Below are positions 15,296-40,196 of a stretch of DNA of 54,726 nt, piece after piece. A program made the position numbers and the translations under genes. Position 1 is the stretch's first letter. The number at the start of each line of letters is the position of its first letter. The stretch lies in NCBI GenBank assembly GCA_902627635.1, contig CACOKA010000003.1:1-54726 (forward strand). Direction: 5' to 3'. This DNA comes from an uncultured Candidatus Actinomarina sp. (GTDB lineage: Bacteria > Actinomycetota > Acidimicrobiia > Actinomarinales > Actinomarinaceae). The notes beneath the pieces were generated by a model. That model was not told where the DNA came from, ran no database searches, and saw only the letters and a list, made by a program, of their open reading frames with translations.

Positions 15296-17944
15296 TTACT
15301 CCCCTTTCGTAATTAAAGTTTCAAAATCTTTTTTAGTTTTTGTAAATACTCTTGAGCCAGATCCTGGTTGCATAGTTACTCCATAAAGAACATCGCCCGC
15401 CTGCATAGTTTGTTGCTGATGAGTGACAATTAAAAACTGTGCATCTTCCTTTACAAACTCAAGTAAATTTAGCATTCTATGTAAATTAGCGTCATCTAAA
15501 GCAGCTTCAACCTCATCTAGTATGTAAAAAGGACTTGGGAAAGATTTAAATACAGAGAATAAAAATGCAATCGCAGCTAATGATCGTTCTCCTCCAGAAA
15601 GTAAACTCAATTTTTTCACTTTCTTACCTCTAGGTTGAACACTTATTTCTATGCCTGATTCAAGTAAGTTTTCAGGGTTTGTTAATGTTAAAGATCCCTT
15701 ACCACCAGGGAAAAGCTTTTCAAAAACTTCTTCAAAATTTACAGAAATAGTGTTGAATGAGTTCTCAATTCTAAATTTAATTTCTTCTTCGATTTCGCTT
15801 ATATATTTTAAAAGTTCTTTTTTAGTTGTATTCAATTCCTCTATGTTTGTTGATATATCTTCATATCTAGTATTTAAAGATTCAAAATCTTCGGAGGCTA
15901 AGTAATTTACAGTACCAAGTTCATCCAGTTGGTTTTCAGTTTTTGAAATAATATTATCAATATCATTTATTGACTCATTTCCAGTTTCATATTCATTGAT
16001 TTGATCAATACTTAAGCCACTTATGTTTGTTAGATTTGAGTAATAAAGAGCTCTTTGTGACATATATTCTGATTCTTTAACCATTAAGTCACTTTTTTTA
16101 TCTTTGTAATTAAATAAACTATTTGAAACATCTTCAAGATTTTCTTCAATTTCATTTATTTGCTCATCATTGTCACTATAGTTTTCATCTAGTTTTTGAT
16201 TTCTCTCTGATAAATTTGAAGAGAGTTCATTTAAAATCTTATAAGCTTGTGATGCTTTTGAATTTATAACTTCATAATTATTTATTTCCTCAGAATTATC
16301 ATTTGAATTTAATTCTTTGACCTTGTTAGAAAGGTTTTTATTTTCATCTGTAAGATATTTAATCTTTTCAGAAGATGAAATAAGTTGTTCATTTATTGAT
16401 GAAGTTTCATTTTCTAAATATTCCTTTTCGGTAAGTAATGATTCCTCCCTGTCTTTTAAAGTCTGTTTAAATTTATCAGAATTGCTATATTCACTAATTA
16501 AAGAAAGTTTCTCATCAAGACTTTTTTGTATTTCATTTTTATTAAGTAATGCATTTTCTTGTTGAATACTCAAATCTGTAATCTCTCTATGTAACAAACT
16601 ATCTGTATGAATCTTTACTTTATTAAAGGATCTAGAATTTAATTTTTTTCTATTAAGGAATTTATCATGCTTCATTAAGTGTTTATTAATAATTTTTTCA
16701 TCTTTGATCCAATTATTTAAATTGTCTGTAAATTTATCAAGTATGTCGGTTTTTGATGATAGATCATTCTTTAAGAACTTAATCTCATTTTTAAGTAAAG
16801 CTTCATTTACTTCCAAACTAGATGATTGTTTACTTTTTACATCTTCAATTTCAAGATTCAAACTTTCAATCTTTTTTGAGTTAACTGTAGCAATTTCTTT
16901 TTTATCAATTATTAGTTTGGACAATTGTGAAATTTGGTTGTTGTTTTGATAAATCTGATTTGTGTATCTTTTTAATTCGCTGGTAGATTGTTCTTTTATT
17001 CTTTCTAATGACAATTGTCTTTCAGTTGAAATTTGATAAATAGACTTAAATTCTTCACTGTATTTGTTTACTTCAGTAATTGCATTTGAAAGAAAAGATT
17101 TTACAGAAACATTTTCTCCAAAATCTTTTCTAAGTTTGTTCTTGCTTAATTTGAAAACTTCAAGTTTAGACTCAAGATCATTAATAAATCGGTTTACTTC
17201 TTCTAGTTGTGATTTGATATCATCATACTTTTTATTGAAATTTCTATATTGGAGAATATTAAGTTTTGTTTTGTTAAATTTTAAAACTTCAGACAATTCC
17301 TTATGAAGCTGAGCTTGTTCAGCCTGTTTTCTTAATGGATCAATCTGTTTTTTTATCTCACGAAGAACATCTTTTGCTCTTTTAATTTCTTTTTCCCCAG
17401 ATTCTATTCTTTTTAAAGCTTTGTCTTTTTTTAATTTATATGGGAGTATCCCAGATGCTTCTTCAATAGTAATTCTATGGTCTTCAGGCTTAGCATTCAA
17501 AATTTCTGTGATTTGGCCTTGAGAGATAATTATATGCTGTTGTTTACCTATACCCACATCATTTAGAAATTCTTGAATATCAAGTAGCCTACAAGTTAGA
17601 CCATTCATGAAATATTCAGAAGTACCATCTCTGTATAATTTTCTTCCAATAGAAACTTCACTTGAATTGAAATTGTTATTATCGCCTAGGTCAAAGACTA
17701 AATATACTTCAGCAAAACCTTTTTCTCCGAGTTTTTCTGTTCCTGCAAAAATTACATCTTCCATTTTGTTTGTTCTTAGAGAACCCGGACTTTGATTACC
17801 TAATACCCATGAAATAGCGTCAACTATATTAGATTTTCCAGATCCATTAGGACCCACAATTACGTTTGTGTATTCAGATAAATTTACTGTAGTTTTTTCA
17901 GCAAATGACTTGAACCCACTCGCAACTATTGATTTTAAGTGCAT
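15296..17944 (-). CDS. smc: Chromosome segregation protein SMC, short (882 aa), no recognisable hinge
   Basis: GFKSFA, GPNGSGKSNIVDA (Walker A), ISQG Q-loop, LLSGGE signature, ILDEVEAALD (Walker B/D-loop), VTH; heptad-rich arms; position downstream of rnc. Confidence 0.92.
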   Translation of the reverse strand: MHLKSIVASGFKSFAEKTTVNLSEYTNVIVGPNGSGKSNIVDAISWVLGNQSPGSLRTNKMEDVIFAGTEKLGEKGFAEVYLVFDLGDNNNFNSSEVSIGRKLYRDGTSEYFMNGLTCRLLDIQEFLNDVGIGKQQHIIISQGQITEILNAKPEDHRITIEEASGILPYKLKKDKALKRIESGEKEIKRAKDVLREIKKQIDPLRKQAEQAQLHKELSEVLKFNKTKLNILQYRNFNKKYDDIKSQLEEVNRFINDLESKLEVFKLSKNKLRKDFGENVSVKSFLSNAITEVNKYSEEFKSIYQISTERQLSLERIKEQSTSELKRYTNQIYQNNNQISQLSKLIIDKKEIATVNSKKIESLNLEIEDVKSKQSSSLEVNEALLKNEIKFLKNDLSSKTDILDKFTDNLNNWIKDEKIINKHLMKHDKFLNRKKLNSRSFNKVKIHTDSLLHREITDLSIQQENALLNKNEIQKSLDEKLSLISEYSNSDKFKQTLKDREESLLTEKEYLENETSSINEQLISSSEKIKYLTDENKNLSNKVKELNSNDNSEEINNYEVINSKASQAYKILNELSSNLSERNQKLDENYSDNDEQINEIEENLEDVSNSLFNYKDKKSDLMVKESEYMSQRALYYSNLTNISGLSIDQINEYETGNESINDIDNIISKTENQLDELGTVNYLASEDFESLNTRYEDISTNIEELNTTKKELLKYISEIEEEIKFRIENSFNTISVNFEEVFEKLFPGGKGSLTLTNPENLLESGIEISVQPRGKKVKKLSLLSGGERSLAAIAFLFSVFKSFPSPFYILDEVEAALDDANLHRMLNLLEFVKEDAQFLIVTHQQQTMQAGDVLYGVTMQPGSGSRVFTKTKKDFETLITKGE

Positions 17945-24505: not shown

Positions 24506-25702
24506 ATGCCTGAAATAAATTTAAAATATAGCAACAAAGAAATAATTGATAACTTCTTTGAAAACTTAACTTGTGACGAATATCAAGAATCTATTTTTAA
24601 AGGTGGTCAATCATATGCTGATCATGCTTTAAACAACCTGGATATAAATGGTTATGCAAAGAAACGAAATAATGTATACCCAAGCGAAAAAAGAGGTTCC
24701 TCTTATTTATCTCCATACATAAGACATGGACTATTAGGTTTAAAAGAAGTTTGGGATTATGTTGAGAACTTTGATTATCAAGATAGAAATAAATTCAGAG
24801 ATGAACTTTTATGGCAGGAATTTTCGAGACATTTATACGCAATAATTGGAAGAAAAAATAAAGAATTTTTAAATTTTTACATTAAAAATGATCCTGGTGA
24901 AATAGTTCAGAATCAGAAAATGAATTGTATTTCTACAATAGAGAATGAGCTTGAATCAACAGGTTACATGGTTAATCAAACAAGAATGTGGTATTCATCT
25001 CATCAAATGTTCAGAACAAGTAACCAGTGGCAAGAATCAGAGGATTATATGTATAAACACCTTGTAGATGGTTCCAGATTTGCTAATAGACTTGGCTGGC
25101 ATTGGGTAATGGGATCACAAACGGGCAAAATTTATGGATTTTCAAAATTCCAAGTAAAAAAAAGAGCACCAAAAATATGTAACGAATGCCAATTACAAAA
25201 TGAATGTCCAATTGAAGACTGGCCAAAGGTTATGAGCATATCAAACAAAGATATAGAAATAGATTTAAATATAGAAAACAACTTCGGGCCACAAACAATA
25301 TTAACTTCAAATGAAAAACCACATTATGTTTGGATCAACGGAGAATCACTAGGAGATGAGGATCCAGCACTTAGTCACTTTTCAGAACTTCCAGTCATAT
25401 TTATATTCGACAAGGGCCTATTAAAAAATCTAAATTTATCTACTAAAAGAATTAACTTTTTATTAGATACTCTAAAAGAGATAAATGAGAAGCGAGAGCT
25501 GACAGTATATTTAGACAACCCAGAAAATGTATTAATGAAAAAAAAGTATGCGTCCACTTTTGCTCCCGTACCAAAATATAAGAAGATTACTAAAAATGCA
25601 AAACCAACTGTAGAGTTCCCAGCAAAAAGATTGATTGCTCCAATAAATTTTTATCCTCGAAGTTTCTCTGCATGGAGAAAAAAAACAAAAATGGCGTTAT
25701 GA
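24506..25702 (+). CDS. DNA photolyase with inverted domain order (NewPHL-like), probable [4Fe-4S] cluster
   Basis: FAD-binding helical domain first (SYLSPYIRHG, DELLWQEF, GYMVNQTRMW, LVDGSRFANRLGWHW), alpha/beta antenna domain last (VWINGESLGDEDPAL..PVIFIFD..RINFLLDTL..SFSAW); Cys in MNC and CNECQLQNEC; 398 aa. Confidence 0.85.
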   Translation: MPEINLKYSNKEIIDNFFENLTCDEYQESIFKGGQSYADHALNNLDINGYAKKRNNVYPSEKRGSSYLSPYIRHGLLGLKEVWDYVENFDYQDRNKFRDELLWQEFSRHLYAIIGRKNKEFLNFYIKNDPGEIVQNQKMNCISTIENELESTGYMVNQTRMWYSSHQMFRTSNQWQESEDYMYKHLVDGSRFANRLGWHWVMGSQTGKIYGFSKFQVKKRAPKICNECQLQNECPIEDWPKVMSISNKDIEIDLNIENNFGPQTILTSNEKPHYVWINGESLGDEDPALSHFSELPVIFIFDKGLLKNLNLSTKRINFLLDTLKEINEKRELTVYLDNPENVLMKKKYASTFAPVPKYKKITKNAKPTVEFPAKRLIAPINFYPRSFSAWRKKTKMAL

Positions 25703-32940: not shown

Positions 32941-33057
32941 TTAACCACCAAATATATGGTTGTACCAACTTGCTGAATTATATAAAATTGCAACTAAGAA
33001 ATATAGAACAAAGGAAATAATTCCAATAATTTGTAGTACTTTAAGAAATAATGACAC
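32941..33057 (-). CDS. Small membrane protein, 38 aa (not in ORF track)
   Basis: GTG start: MSLFLKVLQIIGIISFVLYFLVAILYNSASWYNHIFGG*; fills an otherwise empty gap; TAACCT 6 nt before the start. Confidence 0.6.
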   Translation of the reverse strand: MSLFLKVLQIIGIISFVLYFLVAILYNSASWYNHIFGG

Positions 33058-33099
33058 AAATTAAGGTTAATTGAATATTTTCAAAACAATAAAAATATT

Positions 33100-34848
33100 T
33101 TAAGAATAATCGACATTAGATAATTTTTCTAAATTTGACTCAATAATGCTATACGTATCCATCAATTCTTTAATTTGTAATATTACTTTTGAACATAAAC
33201 TAATCATATCTTCAAAGTGAGGTTTGAAATTTTTGTTTGAGTTAGTTAAATCATCATAGTTCATTGTTTCAAGAGTTTTTAATTTATCTAACGATAAAGT
33301 GAGAAATTCCATAAAGCTTTTTTTGCCAAGGTAACTTAATTTATCTTTTCTGAATAACTTAAATTCAATTAATTTTTCTAAATCAGCAATGTAATCGGAC
33401 TCATTAAAATTATCAACTTCATTGAAATCATTCCAAATTATCCAGTGTCTACGAATGTCATCTATTTGTAATTTAAAATCATTTTCATAATCTAAAAGTA
33501 AAGATGTAAATGTATCATCTTGTAAATTATTCAAAATATCACTGATTATTTTCCAGTGATCGGTTTCGGAAATTTCACTGCTTAATTTAACAAGAGTTTT
33601 TTGATTTGGAACTAAAAAGGTATTCAATATATCATCATTTTTTTTAAGATTATCCAAGTTTGCAAGTTCTTGAAGTAACTTTTTTGTTTTGTTGGAGGCC
33701 TTTAATACTTCAGAATTTTCGATTTTTTGAGATTGTATTGATTTTAAGATTCTATGCAGGTTCTTTAAATCTTTAGATTTTAAATCTTCAAAATTTTTTT
33801 GAAACGCTAAATCTAAATCATTTATTTTGTAGAAGATATTTTTTACAGACTTCTGTATGTTGTCGTCAACTTTACTAAGACCTCCCAAATGTCTTAATTT
33901 TGTAAGTTTTGACTCTAAAATACTTGTGTCAATTTTTGTATATTGATCAATCCATATAGAACAACTGTGCTTATACCAACACCAATTACACAAGTGATTA
34001 ATTTTTGGTTGCCAAACATCAACTAATTTCTTATTTGTAAAGTTATTAATATCAGAAACGGTTTTTTTTGACATTTTTTCATAAGAGTTAACATAGTATT
34101 TTTCATTTTTATCAATATCCCTAATCGGTACTTCAAAAATTCTTTTTTCAGGATTTATATTTTTATTTCCAAGAAAGTAAATAAATCCACTTTCAATATT
34201 GTCTTCACCGTAAAGTAAAGCATAAGATTTTATCTGATCTGATTTTTCCTTATCTAATTTTGAGGGAGGTTTACCTGTTTTTATATCTATAATTATATGT
34301 TTGTCATTATATGTTTTTTGCAATCTATCGACATAGCCCCTTAAAACAAAAGTATCTTGACTTGAAGTAAATTCTTTTTTTAAAAATAATTCATTTTCAA
34401 TTTTTAATTCACCGATTGTTGACAAATCTTTAGAAAACTTGAGAAATTCAAAATTACTTTTGTTTTGAATCCAGTCTTCTAACTCAATGTAGTTTTTTAT
34501 CAATTCATTTATCCATTCCTCAAGGTTTTCAAACTCATTGTTGACTTTGCTCATTTGATTTACATATAACGATGTCAAGTATTTCTCTTGTTTGACCCAG
34601 AGCTCTTCGTATGAATCTTGAAGATAATTAAAGGTTTTTTCCCAGTTAAAATATGGATTTTTATTATCAGGATTCTTATAGTAATTTTCTATTACAGAAT
34701 GAACAAACGTACCAACTGCTGCATGAATGCTTGAGGGTTCACTTATACTTTCCAAATAATTAAATGAAAATTTTCTTTCACAATTTGAAAATGATGATAC
34801 TTTTGAATGTGAAAGAGGACTAATTTTTTTGAGATTGCTTTTTTCCAT
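33100..34848 (-). CDS. PD-(D/E)XK nuclease (RecB/AddB/Cas4-like, four-Cys Fe-S staple) with ~280-aa helical C-terminal extension
   Basis: LSHSK..CERK, GTFVHSVIE, LRGYVDRL, IIDIKTG, QIKSY, CNWCWYKHSC. Confidence 0.85.
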   Translation of the reverse strand: MEKSNLKKISPLSHSKVSSFSNCERKFSFNYLESISEPSSIHAAVGTFVHSVIENYYKNPDNKNPYFNWEKTFNYLQDSYEELWVKQEKYLTSLYVNQMSKVNNEFENLEEWINELIKNYIELEDWIQNKSNFEFLKFSKDLSTIGELKIENELFLKKEFTSSQDTFVLRGYVDRLQKTYNDKHIIIDIKTGKPPSKLDKEKSDQIKSYALLYGEDNIESGFIYFLGNKNINPEKRIFEVPIRDIDKNEKYYVNSYEKMSKKTVSDINNFTNKKLVDVWQPKINHLCNWCWYKHSCSIWIDQYTKIDTSILESKLTKLRHLGGLSKVDDNIQKSVKNIFYKINDLDLAFQKNFEDLKSKDLKNLHRILKSIQSQKIENSEVLKASNKTKKLLQELANLDNLKKNDDILNTFLVPNQKTLVKLSSEISETDHWKIISDILNNLQDDTFTSLLLDYENDFKLQIDDIRRHWIIWNDFNEVDNFNESDYIADLEKLIEFKLFRKDKLSYLGKKSFMEFLTLSLDKLKTLETMNYDDLTNSNKNFKPHFEDMISLCSKVILQIKELMDTYSIIESNLEKLSNVDYS

Positions 34849-34883
34849 AAATACTTTATTTTCTAACTATATACTAAATAATA

Positions 34884-36323
34884 ATGAAATTAGATGAATC
34901 ACAGTCTTTCTTTCTCCAGAAGTTCAAAGACCATACTGAAAACTTCGATGTTGATTTTTTGATACTTACTGGTTCAGCCGGAACAGGTAAAACTGAACTT
35001 ATCAAAAAATGTGTAGAATATTTAAAAATTAATAATTTTGGCCATCAATGTCTAGCTTTTACTGGAAGAGCAGCATCTGTGCTTAGATCAAGAGGTTTAG
35101 AAAATGCAAAAACTATAGATTCGTGGTTATATCGTTTAAACAATAAAGACACATACGAAAAAGAATTAAATCCATACGATAATTTTATTTTTTTTATAGA
35201 TGAATCATCAATGATTTCAAATAGTGCAATTATTTTTGATGAAAAAGAACCTGAACTAGATTTCAAACTTGATGAAATAATGTGGTCGACTTTTAGACAT
35301 ATAAATTGTAAAAATATTCTTTTTATATTTGTAGGTGATAAAAATCAACTGCCTCCATTAAAGCACGATTATTGTCCAGCACTAAATGAAGAATACTTAA
35401 CAAATAGATATGGACTGTCAGGTAAAAGTTATTCTCTTAAAACAATGCATAGGCAAACAAGTGAATCTAACATTCCAAAACTTGCTGAAAATTTTATAAG
35501 TTTTGATAACGAGATTATTAGAGCGATTCCTTCGATCGAAAAAATTGAAAAAGATGTTCAAATAATTGAAAATTCAGAAGTAGTAGATATATTTTTCGAT
35601 TTATATTTCGAAAATAAACATGATGTCAAAATTATTACCGCAACCAATAAAAAAGCAGATTATTACAATTTTTTGATTAAAGAAAAATTAAGTACAGGAA
35701 AATCAAAATTTTTTACTCCTTATCAAATACCAAAAGATAATTTAGAACCACAGAAAGGAGATATTCTTCAAATATTTGCAAACTCTTCAGGGATTTTTGA
35801 TTTTCCAATGTTTAATGGTCAATTTCTTGAAGTTTTAGAATTAGGTAGTGTTTCAGAGACAATTTTAAAAAAAGGCAACCGTATCTTTGACAACATTCCT
35901 TTCATTACGCAGCAACTAACAGTTGATACAATATCCGATAGTGGAGAAAGAGCTGGTAATCCTCAGACTATTGAAATATCAATTGACCACTTAATAAACA
36001 GTTATATTTTAACCAAACAAGAATATGAATATTTTGATAAAAAAGATAAAGGCATGCTTTACAAAATTAAAGATTATATCAGTAAGATTGATTCAAAAAG
36101 AGTTTACTTTAATAAACTTTACAATCCAGTTCTAACAAGATATGGGTATGCAATAACTGGACATAAAGCGCAAGGTGGTGGTTGGAAAAATATTATTATT
36201 GATTTTTCAGGTTTTAATGATGATATGGGGCACTTGCCTCCTAGCTGGATATATACAGCTATTACTAGAGCTAAATCAAACCTTTTTGTAGCTAATTATC
36301 CAATTGAGGAAAAAAATGAGTAG
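34884..36323 (+). CDS. SF1B RecD/Dda-like ATP-dependent DNA helicase
   Basis: GSAGTGKT, AFTGRAA, IDESSM, GDKNQLPP, MHRQ, YAITGHKAQG, YTAITRAK. Confidence 0.88.
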   Translation: MKLDESQSFFLQKFKDHTENFDVDFLILTGSAGTGKTELIKKCVEYLKINNFGHQCLAFTGRAASVLRSRGLENAKTIDSWLYRLNNKDTYEKELNPYDNFIFFIDESSMISNSAIIFDEKEPELDFKLDEIMWSTFRHINCKNILFIFVGDKNQLPPLKHDYCPALNEEYLTNRYGLSGKSYSLKTMHRQTSESNIPKLAENFISFDNEIIRAIPSIEKIEKDVQIIENSEVVDIFFDLYFENKHDVKIITATNKKADYYNFLIKEKLSTGKSKFFTPYQIPKDNLEPQKGDILQIFANSSGIFDFPMFNGQFLEVLELGSVSETILKKGNRIFDNIPFITQQLTVDTISDSGERAGNPQTIEISIDHLINSYILTKQEYEYFDKKDKGMLYKIKDYISKIDSKRVYFNKLYNPVLTRYGYAITGHKAQGGGWKNIIIDFSGFNDDMGHLPPSWIYTAITRAKSNLFVANYPIEEKNE

Positions 36324-37062
36324 TAGCAGAGAAGTCTGGGAAAAATATTGGAATAGCAAAGTTACCAATGATGAAAGTAAAATTTTTGGACTAATTGATG
36401 CTTTACTAAGTCCTTTGAATATAGATGAGAGAAAATTCGTACTTACAAAACCGATATCATTATCAAGGTCTATATCAATTGTTTATAGATTGATTCATTA
36501 CAATTTTTTTAATATTGAAGAAGATAATGAAGAAATAGTAAAAGTAATTGAACCATTAGATTTACCTAATATCGATATTAAAAGTTCAAAAACATTTTCA
36601 AATAGTGGAGACTTCTCTCCATACAACACTCATTCAAGAGAATTATTTAAAGATTGGTGCCTTAATCAAATCAGTCAAGTAGATCCAAATTTACCAAATA
36701 GAACCCAAAGATTTGATTTAAATGAAATGAAAATGATAAAAAATTACTGGGACAATGCAGTTGACTATGAGCTTTATGAAAACTACCAATATACACTAAA
36801 AAACTTTGAATCAAGTATAAAAAAACTAGATAGTGAGACAAAACATAAATTAGAGGAAAAAATAATTTCTATATCAAGTAAATTTACAAAGGAAGATACA
36901 AGGTCTTTTACAGCGTTGATTCTATCAAATAATGAATTGAGAGACGAAATATTAGCGATTAGTGATGAGGATATTACAAAATATATAGAAGAAATACTTA
37001 AAAGGCTAAAAGATGATAATATTCAATATCAGCAATTGAAAAGCAAACTGATATTTGATTAA
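36316..37062 (+). CDS. Hypothetical protein (helical, acidic)
   Basis: Long ORF overlapping the helicase stop by 8 nt with SD GAGG; no motif recognised. Confidence 0.75.
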   Translation: MSSSREVWEKYWNSKVTNDESKIFGLIDALLSPLNIDERKFVLTKPISLSRSISIVYRLIHYNFFNIEEDNEEIVKVIEPLDLPNIDIKSSKTFSNSGDFSPYNTHSRELFKDWCLNQISQVDPNLPNRTQRFDLNEMKMIKNYWDNAVDYELYENYQYTLKNFESSIKKLDSETKHKLEEKIISISSKFTKEDTRSFTALILSNNELRDEILAISDEDITKYIEEILKRLKDDNIQYQQLKSKLIFD

Positions 37063-37064
37063 TT

Positions 37065-37271
37065 ATGATACAAAAATGTACGTGTGGATCAGAACAAAAT
37101 CACTCTATCTTTTGTTCAGGTAGTTTTTACAAGGATCCACTACGAGAACCAAAATATAAGCCTAAAAGTTCAGATGAAAAAACTTGTGATCAATGCTTCT
37201 TAATCTTAAACAAATCAGAGTTTATTGTTGGCTCAGAGACTTGTAAGAATTGTCATTCTCAACCAGTTTAA
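37065..37271 (+). CDS. Small Cys-rich putative zinc-binding protein
   Basis: CTC-x5-H-x3-C plus CDQC and CKNC; 2 nt after the preceding stop. Confidence 0.65.
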   Translation: MIQKCTCGSEQNHSIFCSGSFYKDPLREPKYKPKSSDEKTCDQCFLILNKSEFIVGSETCKNCHSQPV

Positions 37272-37279
37272 AGATAAAT

Positions 37280-38542
37280 CTACGGAAATAATCCTCTAGT
37301 TAATTTTGCAGCAGCCACTTTTTTAATTCCTTTTATTAAAGCAGCTGTTCTTAAGTCAACTTTATTTTTTTCAGAAATAATCCATACCTCTTCAAAGGCT
37401 GAGGTTAGAACATCGATCAATCGTTCATGTAGTTCTTTTTCTTTCCATAAATAGTTTTGTGTATTTTGAACCCATTCAAAATAACTAGCAGTAACGCCGC
37501 CTGCATTAGCAAGAATATCAGGTATTAGTAAAACTCCATTTTCCCTAAGTATTTTATCTGCACTAAGAGTTGTTGGAGAATTTGCGCCCTCAGCAATAAT
37601 TTTTGCTTTAATATTTTCTGCGTTATTTGATGTTATAACACCGCCAACAGCGGCAGGAATCAAAATATCACAATCAATTTCCAAAATTTCATCGTCAAAA
37701 TTGTCGGCACCATCAAAATCCTTTACAGTTTTATTTTTAGCTGTGTGTTTAAAAAGTTCAGGAATATTAATTCCATCCTTATTATAAATAGCACCGCCTA
37801 GATCATTTACAGCAATCACTTTTGCTCCTCTTTCGTATGAGTCAAGAGCTGCATACCGCCCAACATTTCCAAATCCTTGGATAACAATTGTTGAGTTTTC
37901 ATATTGTAAATTTAATTTATTTAAAGCTGCGTTTGCAATGGCTATAACACCTCTTCCGGTTGCTTCTCTTCTTGTGATAGAACCACCAAGTGAAGCTGGT
38001 TTTCCAGTTACAATTCCTGGTTGTGGTGACCCAACGAAATTACTGTAGGTATCCATGATCCATGCCATAGTCTGTTCATCTGTTCCAAGGTCTGGACCTG
38101 GAATATCCTTATCAACACCAATCAATGGTAATAATTCAGCCGTGTATCTTCTTGTTACTCTTTGTTTCTCTTGTTTTGAAAGGGGGTTTGGATCAATTGC
38201 AACACCACCCTTTGCTCCACCATAAGGTAAACCTACTATTGCTGACTTCCATGACATCAAAATTGCCAGTGCTGTAACCTCTCCTAAATTTACATTTGAA
38301 GCATATCTAATACCACCTTTAGTTGGTCCCATTGATAAAACATGTTGTACTCGATATCCAATTACAGTTTCTACCTCATCATACTCATCTCTTCTGAATG
38401 GAAATGTCACTGTAAGTGCTCTTTGAGGGAGTTTCAATCTTTCTTTAATATTTGAATCAAGATTAATGAATTCAGTTACTTCATCATATTGCTTGATGAC
38501 CTCTCTATACATGCCTGACTCGAAAAGGTCTGAATTACTCAT
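37280..38542 (-). CDS. gdhA: Glutamate dehydrogenase (Glu/Leu/Phe/Val family)
   Basis: GPTKGGIRY, GGAKGG, DIPGPDLGT, GFGNVG, EGANSP, PDILANAGGVTASYFEW. Confidence 0.93.
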   Translation of the reverse strand: MSNSDLFESGMYREVIKQYDEVTEFINLDSNIKERLKLPQRALTVTFPFRRDEYDEVETVIGYRVQHVLSMGPTKGGIRYASNVNLGEVTALAILMSWKSAIVGLPYGGAKGGVAIDPNPLSKQEKQRVTRRYTAELLPLIGVDKDIPGPDLGTDEQTMAWIMDTYSNFVGSPQPGIVTGKPASLGGSITRREATGRGVIAIANAALNKLNLQYENSTIVIQGFGNVGRYAALDSYERGAKVIAVNDLGGAIYNKDGINIPELFKHTAKNKTVKDFDGADNFDDEILEIDCDILIPAAVGGVITSNNAENIKAKIIAEGANSPTTLSADKILRENGVLLIPDILANAGGVTASYFEWVQNTQNYLWKEKELHERLIDVLTSAFEEVWIISEKNKVDLRTAALIKGIKKVAAAKLTRGLFP

Positions 38543-38595
38543 TACATGGCTATATTATTCTAAAAAACAACTTGTTGTATGTTTTTTTACATTTT

Positions 38596-38618
38596 TTGTC
38601 ATATCCGTTTTCTATTAT
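38596..38618 (+). promoter_or_regulatory. Promoter with PafBC/RecA-NDp-like geometry: tTGTCA-N11-TATTAT
   Basis: TGTCA 38597-38601, 11-nt spacer, TATTAT 38613-38618, then 7 nt to ATG 38626. Confidence 0.5.
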
Positions 38619-38625
38619 TTCTTTT

Positions 38626-38742
38626 ATGAAAAATAACAAAATTGAAGATATTCTTAAATCATGCGGATTGGAAGCAGTGATTGTTTGCTACCAACATAAT
38701 GACAGCTGTAAATGTCATGAAGATTATAGAAAAGCCGCTTAG
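38626..38742 (+). CDS. Cys/His-rich micro-protein, 38 aa, ending in -AA (not in ORF track)
   Basis: MKNNKIEDILKSCGLEAVIVCYQHNDSCKCHEDYRKAA*; ATG at leaderless distance from the -10 box; stop lies just before the SD of the next gene. Confidence 0.6.
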   Translation: MKNNKIEDILKSCGLEAVIVCYQHNDSCKCHEDYRKAA

Positions 38743-38755
38743 TTTAGGAGTAAAT

Positions 38756-39316
38756 ATGAGTAATAATTTAGATGAAATATTGTCTTTAACAAAAGAGATA
38801 ACATATCAGGATGGTGATGACTTTGATATTACTGTTACTGAATATGGAGAAGAACTTTCCAAAACAAACGATATTGAGTTCCTTTGGATAGCCAGAAATA
38901 CTAGCTCAACCGTAAAAAAAGCAACTACAAATATTAAGTCTTTTAATGATCAAAATATTGCAAAAAACGTTGAAGAAAATGGACCTGTAAGGCTTGGAGA
39001 TGAAGTATTTGTATTTAACAAATCTTACAATTGGAAAGTTCAAAATTTAAGAAAATTTATTGAGTGGATTATTGAAAAATCAGATAACAATGAAGAGCTA
39101 GTTGAATCATTACTTGCAATACTTGGACAAACCTTTGTTCCAAAATTAAAGGGACTTGATGCTTTTTCAAATTCTAAAAATATTAATCCTGAAATGATTC
39201 GTGACACTTTTTTGTATAAAGAATGGAAAGAAAAAGCTGACTTGAAGAGTATAAATACAAATAACAGCACCGCCCCAAAATGGGCAAAAGAGCTAGGTCA
39301 TAAAGAAAGGAAATAA
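38756..39316 (+). CDS. Hypothetical protein, phage recombination-module-like
   Basis: SD AGGAG at 38746-38750 before ATG 38756 (ORF-track start 38681 is probably too long); TAATG coupling to the Rad52-like gene. Confidence 0.75.
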   Translation: MSNNLDEILSLTKEITYQDGDDFDITVTEYGEELSKTNDIEFLWIARNTSSTVKKATTNIKSFNDQNIAKNVEENGPVRLGDEVFVFNKSYNWKVQNLRKFIEWIIEKSDNNEELVESLLAILGQTFVPKLKGLDAFSNSKNINPEMIRDTFLYKEWKEKADLKSINTNNSTAPKWAKELGHKERK

Positions 39317-39744
39317 TGAATCAATTATACGAACTATCAAGACAATTTCCAGATGAGTGGATAAAACCCGCTCCAAAAGGAAAATTTGGAAACTATATTC
39401 CACATTCTGTCATTACTCAAAGACTTCTAGAAGTATGTGGGCCTTTCAATTGGGAGGTTGTTCAATTAATCAGACAAGAAAATAATGGAAAAGTAGTTGG
39501 TTGCTTTGGCAAACTGACAACACAAATTGATGGTAAATCAGTAACCATAACATCTATTGGAGATGTTGAACACGATCAAGGAAGTGATGGTATGAATGCT
39601 AAACATGCTGAATCAGATGCCTTCAAAAGATGTGCTATGAAAGTTGGTCTTGGATTACATCTTTGGGCTGGTGAAGAATATTACTTAGATAAAAAACTTA
39701 GCGAAGCTGAAGGAAAGAAAAACATAAAGTTACAATCTGCTTAA
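39316..39744 (+). CDS. Rad52/Rad22-family single-strand annealing protein (Sak/DdrA-like core)
   Basis: YIPHSVITQRLLEVCGPFNW, beta-strand core, KHAESDAFKRCAMKVGLGLHLW, matching the family signature K.A.(S/T)DA.KR.....G.G..L. Confidence 0.82.
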   Translation: MNQLYELSRQFPDEWIKPAPKGKFGNYIPHSVITQRLLEVCGPFNWEVVQLIRQENNGKVVGCFGKLTTQIDGKSVTITSIGDVEHDQGSDGMNAKHAESDAFKRCAMKVGLGLHLWAGEEYYLDKKLSEAEGKKNIKLQSA

Positions 39745-40196
39745 CTCTGTATTTTTCCATCCCTTGATTCAATAAACATTGTTAAGGGGCCATCGTTAAC
39801 AAGTGAAACTTCCATTAAAGCACCAAAAATACCCTGCTTTACTGTACAACTATCAGAAAAAATCTGAGCAACATCATCGATCATTTCTTTTGCGATCTCA
39901 GGATCTTGAGAATTTATAAATGACGGCCTATTTCCTTTTTGAATATTTCCACTTAATGTGAATTGACTTACTAAAAGTATCTCTCCCCCTGCATCAATTA
40001 TTGATTTATTCATTTTTCCATTTTCATCAGAAAATATTCTTAAATTAATAATCTTCTTTGTCAAAGTTTCTATATCTTCTGAAGTATCACCTTTTTCGAT
40101 ACACCATAAAAGTAAATAACCACAGTCAATATTTGAAACTAAAGCGTTATCGACTTTCACAGAAGCAGATTTAACTCTTTGCAAAACAACTTTCAT
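39741..40196 (-). CDS. dtd: D-aminoacyl-tRNA deacylase
   Basis: MKVVLQRV, LRIFSD, VSQFTL, GNRPSF, NDGP. Confidence 0.96.
   Translation of the reverse strand: MKVVLQRVKSASVKVDNALVSNIDCGYLLLWCIEKGDTSEDIETLTKKIINLRIFSDENGKMNKSIIDAGGEILLVSQFTLSGNIQKGNRPSFINSQDPEIAKEMIDDVAQIFSDSCTVKQGIFGALMEVSLVNDGPLTMFIESRDGKIQS

Follow-up and report, generated by a model that had tools for sequence, protein, structure and literature searches.

A conserved Rad52-fold annealase operon of apparent phage origin behind a putative PafBC-type promoter in Candidatus Actinomarinales

A three-gene operon at 38626-39744 of the window (the whole 54,726-nucleotide stretch analyzed here, contig CACOKA010000003.1 of the uncultured Candidatus Actinomarina sp. 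assembly GCA_902627635.1) encodes a 38-residue Cys/His peptide (pep38), a 186-residue protein (p186) and a 142-residue Rad52-fold protein, hereafter the annealase. Our data make it probable that this operon is a phage-derived module that has become a core host operon under a PafBC-type promoter, where it would supply an annealing or RecA-mediator step. What is new is the system as a whole: a core, order-wide operon of the PafBC type that includes two partner genes not described before, within a lineage that has no recognizable RecA loaders. Bacterial Rad52-fold annealases are regarded as phage tools, with DdrA as the one well-known cellular case. A full-text search returned no literature naming Actinomarina together with Rad52. 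The words 'repair', 'RecA', 'annealing' and 'SOS' are absent from the main text of the 2020 paper on genomes of the order (PMC7771536), as are 'repair', 'RecA', 'Rad52' and 'annealing' from the main text of the 2026 preprint 'Actinomarina, resolved'.

Operon structure and annealase fold

An open reading frame (ORF) check recovered three co-directional genes exactly where the original prediction had placed them. The first cistron, pep38 (38626..38742, + strand), runs from ATG 38626 to TAG 38742 and is followed on the same strand by p186 (38756..39316), a member of an unnamed phage-type family whose ATG at 38756 has its own Shine-Dalgarno sequence (AGGAG, 38746-38750). The annealase gene, of the Sak/Rad52_Rad22 type, completes the operon (39316..39744, + strand). 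Its ATG at 39316 overlaps the p186 stop codon as TAATG (39313-39317), a junction through which annealase translation is predicted to be coupled to that of p186.

Profile matches and a structural model both identify the 142-residue product as a predicted Rad52-fold annealing protein, a new member of a known family. It matched Pfam PF04098 (Rad52_Rad22) at 23.8 bits, above the cut-off of 20.3 (E 4.8e-5, residues 7-129), and its best PHROG was phrog_3290, 'single strand annealing protein' (1.2e-12). The AlphaFold2 model, from an alignment of 22 relatives, reached a predicted local distance difference test (pLDDT) score of 88.5 and matches the Rad52 N-terminal fold, defined by a beta-beta-beta-alpha core with flanking helices. 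Foldseek returned 19 matches in the PDB at E <= 0.001, and among the matches listed were human Rad52 (1h2i_A, 9.8e-6, TMq 0.54), yeast Mgm101 (9yi9_P, 1.0e-5, TMq 0.60) and the Sak protein of phage 80a (8qe9, 6.4e-4). The Rad52 fold that had been proposed from the letters of the sequence is thus confirmed, and it is very likely that the protein anneals DNA in some form. A search of the annealase profile against PDB sequences gave a single row, which we dismissed as chance. Complex prediction for the annealase with p186 scored 0.00, an uncontrolled value that has no bearing either way.

The closest known systems are the phage Sak proteins of lactococcal ul36 and staphylococcal 80a, with which the annealase shares a Pfam family above cut-off, a fold and a small size. 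Its phage relatives sit in modules with exonuclease, single-stranded DNA-binding protein (SSB) and replication genes. In contrast to Sak, the Actinomarina annealase is a single-copy core chromosomal gene across a bacterial order, and its operon has a host damage-type promoter, no exonuclease gene and the 38-residue peptide gene in front.

Conservation across the order

Far from being confined to one strain or pseudogenized in relatives, the two outcomes that the original prediction had linked to a prophage relic, the annealase occurs in 58 of 65 Actinomarinales genomes (75-99% identity) and in 11 of the 12 genomes of this order that are at least 90% complete. At the level of the genus it was present in 32 of 37 genomes, versus none of 24 others from the class, and a family profile search likewise found it in 45 of 48 Actinomarina versus 0 of 153 other Acidimicrobiia (101 other genera). 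Of the five genus genomes without the annealase, four have no gdhA either and one has a gdhA truncated at a contig end, so these absences are best read as assembly gaps rather than losses. In the same 32 of 37 genomes, the gene immediately upstream of that for the annealase is p186 (39-98% identity). The source assembly itself, 0.81 Mb in 41 contigs, has a completeness of 77%; the Candidatus Actinomarina genome is about 1 Mb.

The operon occupies a fixed position. In the window it is flanked by gdhA (37280-38542, - strand; Pfam ELFV_dehydrog, 1.2e-77) and dtd (39741-40196, - strand; Pfam Tyr_Deacylase, 5.9e-53), and the arrangement of gdhA, operon and dtd is kept in 8 of 8 divergent relatives. 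The full order in those eight is inositol-phosphate synthase, nuclease, gdhA, peptide, p186, annealase, dtd, PNPOx and two dehydrogenase genes (hydroxyacyl-CoA dehydrogenase, then acyl-CoA dehydrogenase). Across 53 species loci, the annealase and dtd were each present in 53, p186 and gdhA in 52 and the peptide in 51; of the two species loci with missing genes, one is cut by a contig end.

The operon is under purifying selection. Median pairwise ratios of nonsynonymous to synonymous substitution (dN/dS; Nei-Gojobori, pairs at dS 0.1-1.5, close enough to saturation that the values are rough) were 0.055 for gdhA, 0.09 for the annealase, 0.11 for the PNPOx gene, 0.25 for dtd, 0.37 for p186 and 0.39 for the peptide. 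No in-frame stops were seen among the annealase matches listed for the order genomes. Nor does the locus resemble an integrated prophage or genomic island: it is fixed in 51-53 of 53 species loci, no tRNA was found in the window by tRNA search, no integrase was found among the Pfam-scanned ORFs (scans of 9 ORFs, of 3 ORFs in the window and of 18 ORFs), and the repeats around the operon are short and imperfect, none of them convincing as att sites. The lack of integrase and att sequences noted at the outset therefore holds, and so does the suggestion of domestication, given the order-wide presence, the fixed gdhA/dtd synteny and the low dN/dS. A prophage relic is excluded for practical purposes.

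In a tree of 132 sequences from a quick maximum-likelihood search, not a careful one, and with many unresolved forks, a single branch (SH-aLRT 94) separates all 37 distinct annealases of the hosts from the rest, a topology that fits a single origin within the order. One genus genome, G020 (contamination 5%), carries three extra, distant annealase copies on contigs C30 and C36 (38-45% identity, frames of 296 and 197 residues); these may be phage or foreign contigs.

Phage relatives and partner proteins

Viral relatives of the annealase emerged when IMG/VR was scanned with the family alignment: 193 stretches were found, and the 80 kept had 32-53% identity. Genes beside them include those for PD-(D/E)XK exonucleases and Mre11-like phosphoesterases, for an integrase, and for replication initiators and SSB. 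A search with the single annealase sequence against viral contigs and GenBank phages found no locus and one weak Rhizobium phage match.

Homologues of p186 were located with a narrow alignment (A4), the wider one (A2) being too divergent for a locus scan, in 41 IMG/VR contigs with G+C contents of 32-38%. In 28 of these 41 the same order recurs: a primase gene on the opposite strand, an exonuclease gene (phrog_284), a p186-like gene, an annealase gene and a 146-residue SSB/polymerase-like gene. In another 12-13 contigs the p186-like gene has no annealase gene beside it and lies among RusA, replication-initiator, SSB, ParB and methylase genes. Because the phrog_284 exonuclease of the module has relatives in 730 actinophage records, the phages that carry the module probably infect marine actinobacteria. 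Among the contigs at issue (L222-L262, together with L102 and L093) is a group of low-G+C marine phage contigs that share the exonuclease, p186-like and annealase module. A synteny comparison of relatives with marine phage contigs, which the original prediction had proposed as a check, thus yields a fixed host locus in 8 of 8 relatives and a recurrent module order in the phages. Together with the viral relatives of both proteins, this shared order supports a phage origin of the annealase and p186 module, in line with the captured recombination module first suspected.

The p186 protein has no match in Pfam, PHROGs, NCBIfam or PADLOC. It is rare: 43 matches were found in 1.84 billion representative proteins, mostly fragments from the order. 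Its conserved motifs are RLGD, FVPKL.GLDA, RDTF and APKWA..L..GERR, and the 43 matches include a few G+C-rich relatives with RLGD, DTF and APKWA..L..GERR. No match to it was obtained by tblastn at E <= 5 in 50,697 phage records of GenBank. In the AlphaFold2 model (pLDDT 80.9, predicted template modelling score 0.60) residues 40-75 form a long helix, accompanied by a meander of three strands, a region of four helices and a beta-hairpin, and the model found no match in the PDB (best Foldseek E 0.9; best VIA Z 4.7 over 50 residues). PprA rows in the Foldseek PDB search (E 1-3) were dismissed as chance, and the best VIA row was set aside because it is confined to that 50-residue helical stretch.

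Predicted viral structures (BFVD) gave somewhat more for p186. The top row was an uncharacterized phage protein (1.4e-4), followed by a 'RecB-like exonuclease' of Arthrobacter phage KellEzio (4.5e-4, TMq 0.40), a PD-(D/E)XK protein of Tsukamurella phage TIN4 (1.2e-2) and two weak rows, Siphovirus Gp157 (1.3e-2, TMq 0.26) and a 'host-nuclease inhibitor' (1.6e-2, TMq 0.37). These rows fit p186 as a recombination accessory protein and stop short of a fold assignment. The original prediction had suggested a Mu Gam- or Gp157-like fold; on the sequence side this was not borne out, as neither Mu Gam (PF07352) nor Gp157 (PF05565) was listed for 15 members of the p186 family at E <= 5, a scan limited by HMMER filters that drop most matches above about 0.1, and on the structural side it found an echo in the weak viral rows alone. 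The accompanying suggestion that p186 binds DNA ends is correspondingly weak. The ESM Atlas offered unnamed viral clusters at scores of at most 0.90, which we treat as a lead only. Kinship with the exonuclease of viral locus L102 was rejected at an hhalign probability of 0.3. The phage relatives of the module share the order of exonuclease, accessory gene and annealase with the lambda Red and RecET systems that have Gam or Gp157-like accessories; p186 differs from those accessories in lacking a sequence family or PDB fold match, and the host operon differs in lacking an exonuclease gene.

The peptide gene is present in 51 of 53 species loci and always has 38 codons; 32 distinct sequences share the invariant positions M1, G14, C21, H24, D26, C28, C30, H31, A37 and A38. 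Since the length is fixed and these residues do not vary, the operon genes are more than chance ORFs. The conserved motif C-x2-H-x-D-x-C-x-C-H suggests a putative metal-binding micro-protein, zinc-knuckle-like in character, for which Pfam, PHROGs, NCBIfam and PADLOC contain no family. It was found by tblastn in none of 121 viral loci (80 annealase and 41 p186 loci), and for this reason looks like a host addition.

Promoter and regulator

Directly upstream of pep38 is a PafBC-type promoter element (38596..38618, + strand, recognized from its sequence), consisting of TTGTCA at 38596-38601 (with GTC at 38598-38600), an 11-nt spacer and a -10 element, TATTAT, at 38613-38618; 7 nt separate the latter from the pep38 ATG at 38626. 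The pattern TGTC-N12-TAnnnT lies upstream of pep38 in 51 of 51 species loci with the peptide; its -10 and the ATG are 7 nt apart in 32 loci, 6 nt apart in 12 and 8 nt apart in 7. These 6-8 nt leave no room for a leader or ribosome-binding site, so the operon mRNA should be leaderless. Apart from the promoter element, the gdhA-pep38 spacer (79-90 nt) is poorly conserved: the positions invariant in 46 distinct spacers are T, G, T, C, A+6, T16, A17 and T21.

PMC8635444 gives the in-vivo consensus of Mycolicibacterium smegmatis PafBC as tGTCgg(N10)tA(N3)T, a hybrid promoter without a -35 element, and describes the GTC triplet as strictly conserved among actinobacteria and read by PafB R46 and R50. 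The spacing in the operon promoter is identical to that published consensus. What Actinomarina has in common with mycobacterial PafBC promoters (RecA-NDp, the RecA-independent DNA-damage type) is a GTC -26 element, a TAnnnT -10 at a distance of 12 nt and, as regulator candidate, a homologue of PafB with R46 and R50; the differences are that Actinomarina is AT-rich and that the positions after TGTC are R-Y-A-C, not g-g.

The candidate regulator is a WYL-domain protein that adjoins prcB-prcA and is encoded in 4 of 4 relatives searched. In the single-contig relative G009, the proteasome genes prcB-prcA are followed by the 274-residue WYL protein and then by a 289-residue gene. The WYL protein matches chain 7p5x_AY of the RNA polymerase-PafBC complex (7P5X, PMC8635444) at 8e-6, with F-R-R-A-F-E-R-D-K aligned to F-S-R-M-F-E-R-D-K and both R46 and R50 kept. 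Its 289-residue neighbor had no Pfam or PDB match and no detectable similarity to the WYL protein.

LexA is present in 5 of 5 genomes searched, and a LexA-type GAAC-N4-GTTC box was found in 0 of 51 gdhA-pep38 intergenic regions. With TGTC-N12-TAnnnT present and this box absent, we read the operon as PafBC-type and LexA-independent, and the host DNA-damage promoter that the original prediction had postulated thus gains a likely identity; induction by damage would follow from this architecture. In 30 genus genomes (L184-L213), recA promoters carry TCGAAC-N4-GTTCGA or TAGAAC-N4-GTTCTA directly before TGTC, and the recA of the single-contig relative has the TGTC-N12-TAnnnT motif. The same recA arrangement occurs in the source assembly, on contig C12 upstream of 21207. 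The layout suggests dual LexA/PafBC control as in mycobacteria, with a variable distance to the -10.

Beyond the operon and recA, no wider PafBC regulon was definable. The strict pattern had 16 matches in the source assembly, and in G009, besides the operon's own, 23 sites, of which only that of recA lies directly upstream of a recognizable repair gene. Three intergenic sites are of note. One in the source assembly (C14 8973-8996, - strand; L214) is 5 nt before the ATG of a 166-residue protein without a Pfam family, with an NDH-2 gene downstream. A second (C16 16790-16812, - strand; L215) is followed by a G+C-rich hairpin and a T-run with no ORF, beside a GmrSD-like gene, and possibly drives a small RNA. 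The third, an intergenic strict-pattern site in G009 (L173, G009:C1:488909 onward), precedes a G+C-rich, apparently structured segment, GGTGGGTGCCTCGCTAGGAGGCACCC. A second, shorter LexA-like paralogue (S24 peptidase) was also seen in 5 of 5 genomes (source assembly C12 1264-1707; G009, G062, G083 and G086).

In four metatranscriptome runs, which belong to a single study and represent no more than three samples, contigs with 90-100% likeness were found over all three genes, one of them spanning the p186/annealase junction (39031-39362). The promoter bin 38552-38655 was uncovered in three of the four runs, and one X1 contig spans 38259-38666. Such contigs give neither strand, start nor level and may include DNA carry-over, and we treat them as weak support for transcription.

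Recombination gene set

Relatives in the class encode RecA loaders that were not found in Actinomarina. RecR (TIGR00615) was detected in 0 of 37 Actinomarina genomes versus 24 of 24 class relatives (E 1e-67 to 1e-83), and RecO_N (PF11967) in 0 of 37 versus 23 of 24. Searches of five Actinomarina genomes for recO (TIGR00613) and for RecO_C (PF02565, E <= 0.1) were likewise negative in all five. For recF (TIGR00611), none of the five had a match over the cut-off, and the only hits were P-loop matches in an 882-residue SMC_N protein; in the window this SMC_N/AAA_23 protein, the sole weak recF-model match, is encoded at 15296-17944 (- strand). Exactly one UvrD-type helicase, of about 715 residues, is encoded in 4 of 4 relatives; with one such helicase per genome there is no room for RecB, AddA or AdnA/B. 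Ku was found in 0 of 5 Actinomarina genomes. RecA is present in 30 of 31. The lineage thus keeps the recombinase and both damage regulators, and the known RecA-loading systems were not found.

Neighboring genes

Beyond gdhA, on the operon strand, about 48 of the 50 species loci that reach that far encode a 327-residue Cas4-like PD-(D/E)XK nuclease with a C-terminal Cys cluster (L013:3996-4979 in G009, and the same position in L027-L079). In each of four relatives it ranks first among PDDEXK_1 matches, and it is the only other recombination-type gene near the operon. Its promoter was rejected as a clear PafBC site: the strict GTC-N12-TAnnnT pattern is present in only 7 of 50 loci, and two of those seven rows are partial locus-edge matches whose motifs lie thousands of bases away. 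The nuclease promoter is loosely PafBC-like, with a conserved TCAC...TTTTACAA.

The source genome is peculiar here. The original prediction had described the operon as lying between housekeeping genes, which holds for the gdhA and dtd flanks and fails just beyond gdhA, where a 4.2-kb nuclease/helicase cassette found in this genome only (33036-37280) replaces the 1035-bp Cas4-like nuclease gene that the close relative L027 and most species loci have at this position. The cassette encodes a 582-residue PD-(D/E)XK/Dna2-like nuclease (33100-34848, - strand), a 479-residue superfamily 1B Dda/RecD-like helicase (34884-36323, + strand; PADLOC candidate PDC-M16A, 5.8e-68), a 252-residue protein without assignment and a 68-residue Cys-rich protein. 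It could be a defense candidate or an alternative end-processing set. Elsewhere in the window, a photolyase-like FAD_binding_7 protein is encoded at 24506-25702 (+ strand).

Discussion

The reading that we favor is as follows. A p186-like gene and a Rad52-fold annealase gene would have been captured from a phage at the base of Candidatus Actinomarinales, and the 38-residue Cys/His peptide gene would have been placed ahead of the captured pair. Upon damage, single-stranded DNA (ssDNA) would activate PafBC, which would bring RNA polymerase to the -26/-10 hybrid promoter without LexA. The leaderless mRNA would give the peptide, p186 and, through translational coupling, the annealase. Annealase rings on ssDNA would then anneal complementary strands, or else displace SSB and nucleate RecA, the job of RecO or Rad52.

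This last alternative leads to a more specific and more tentative proposal. In other bacteria RecO and RecR load RecA, and RecO is functionally analogous to Rad52, the mediator of Rad51. It is possible, at a confidence well short of even, that the phage-origin Rad52-fold protein replaced RecFOR as the RecA mediator and became the sole presynaptic pathway, wired to PafBC and perhaps acting with p186 and the peptide. Such a mediator might, on the same doubtful footing, be viewed as a bacterial counterpart of the eukaryotic Rad52-Rad51 partnership. The annealase would resemble RecO/RecR and eukaryotic Rad52 in its proposed job, annealing SSB-coated strands and aiding the recombinase onto ssDNA, and its presence within the class is complementary to that of RecO/RecR; it differs in lacking homology to them, and its mediator role is a proposal by analogy.

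Several points weigh against the favored reading, in either its broad or its specific form. We know of no demonstration that a Rad52-fold protein loads a bacterial RecA. RecO/RecR were lost and the annealase was gained on one and the same branch, which makes this a single event and an unreplicated correlation. Genome-wide, the strict promoter pattern shows no enrichment (24 matches in G009 versus 36 in the reversed control, and counts below the reversed control also in G062 and G086), the spacing of the recA motif differs from 12 in most genomes, and the WYL protein had no match in the source assembly, which is 77% complete. The pairing of p186 with the annealase is frequent and not obligate, as the 12-13 viral loci without an annealase beside p186 indicate. 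Finally, PMC2475510 reports that divergent RecO proteins have been missed by annotation before.

The strongest rival dispenses with RecA. Phage single-strand annealing proteins of this superfamily act without it, and the annealase could accordingly work with the Cas4-like nuclease as a recombinase of the lambda Red/RecET kind, without RecA loading, in repair between repeats or in the integration of incoming DNA. The nuclease lies on the same strand, one gene away, in about 48 of 50 loci, and in the viral relatives an exonuclease gene sits directly upstream of the module (28 of 41 p186 loci). Against this, the nuclease is outside the operon and has the strict promoter in only 7 of 50 loci, and in the source genome it has been swapped for the other cassette with the operon unchanged. 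Such a recombinase would also leave the loading of the retained RecA unexplained. According to the 2026 preprint, there are very few internal repeats (just 2 in the majority of genomes), and for this reason little substrate for repeat annealing. We regard RecA-independent annealing as unlikely, if still worth serious attention.

Alternatively, the Rad52-fold protein may shield 3' single-stranded ends rather than anneal them, as in a DdrA-like form of end protection. According to PMC515370, the DdrA protein of Deinococcus is a cellular homologue of Rad52 that is induced by damage; the Actinomarina annealase, too, is a short chromosomally encoded protein whose gene follows a damage-type promoter. 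The likeness to DdrA of Deinococcus radiodurans, drawn by description only, is that of a cellular Rad52-family protein apparently tied to the damage response. The differences are the phylum, the regulator (Deinococcus' own versus a PafBC-type promoter here) and the operon with two further genes, and PMC2806897 has Deinococcus retaining RecFOR, in contrast to Actinomarina, in which RecO and RecR were not found. The closest relatives of the annealase are instead phage annealases in exonuclease/SSB/replication modules, and its best PHROG is an annealing protein; end protection as the main role therefore seems to us quite improbable.

An anti-phage or phage-interference role, such as exclusion by recombination or the provision of a decoy for phage proteins, draws on the match of the neighboring cassette in the source genome to the candidate defense helicase PDC-M16A (5.8e-68), and we consider it very improbable: pep38, p186 and the annealase have 0 PADLOC models at E <= 0.01, the operon lies in a conserved core region rather than a variable island, and its promoter type points to DNA damage. 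The phage relatives of the annealase and p186 would also be expected of a decaying prophage remnant or selfish cassette without host function, the least credible of these explanations by our estimate, for an order-wide operon at one fixed locus with an annealase dN/dS of 0.09, no stops among the matches listed and no integrase, tRNA or att-like repeats found, in a streamlined genome of about 1 Mb.

Returning to the reading of a phage-derived module turned core host operon, its consequences would reach beyond one gene. Two new families of small proteins that accompany recombinases are defined by the operon, and the annealase suggests a compact recombineering tool for low-G+C actinobacteria. If the annealase fills the gap left by the RecA loaders, a central step of recombination would have passed to a phage gene in a clean natural example of non-orthologous replacement, and the long-discussed functional equivalence of RecO and Rad52 would become testable in a bacterial setting. 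Strong within-species homologous recombination has been inferred for Actinomarina populations in PMC7771536, and the same role, if true, would help to explain how streamlined cells sustain it. These abundant ocean bacteria, among the smallest free-living cells, have kept the annealase as a core gene.

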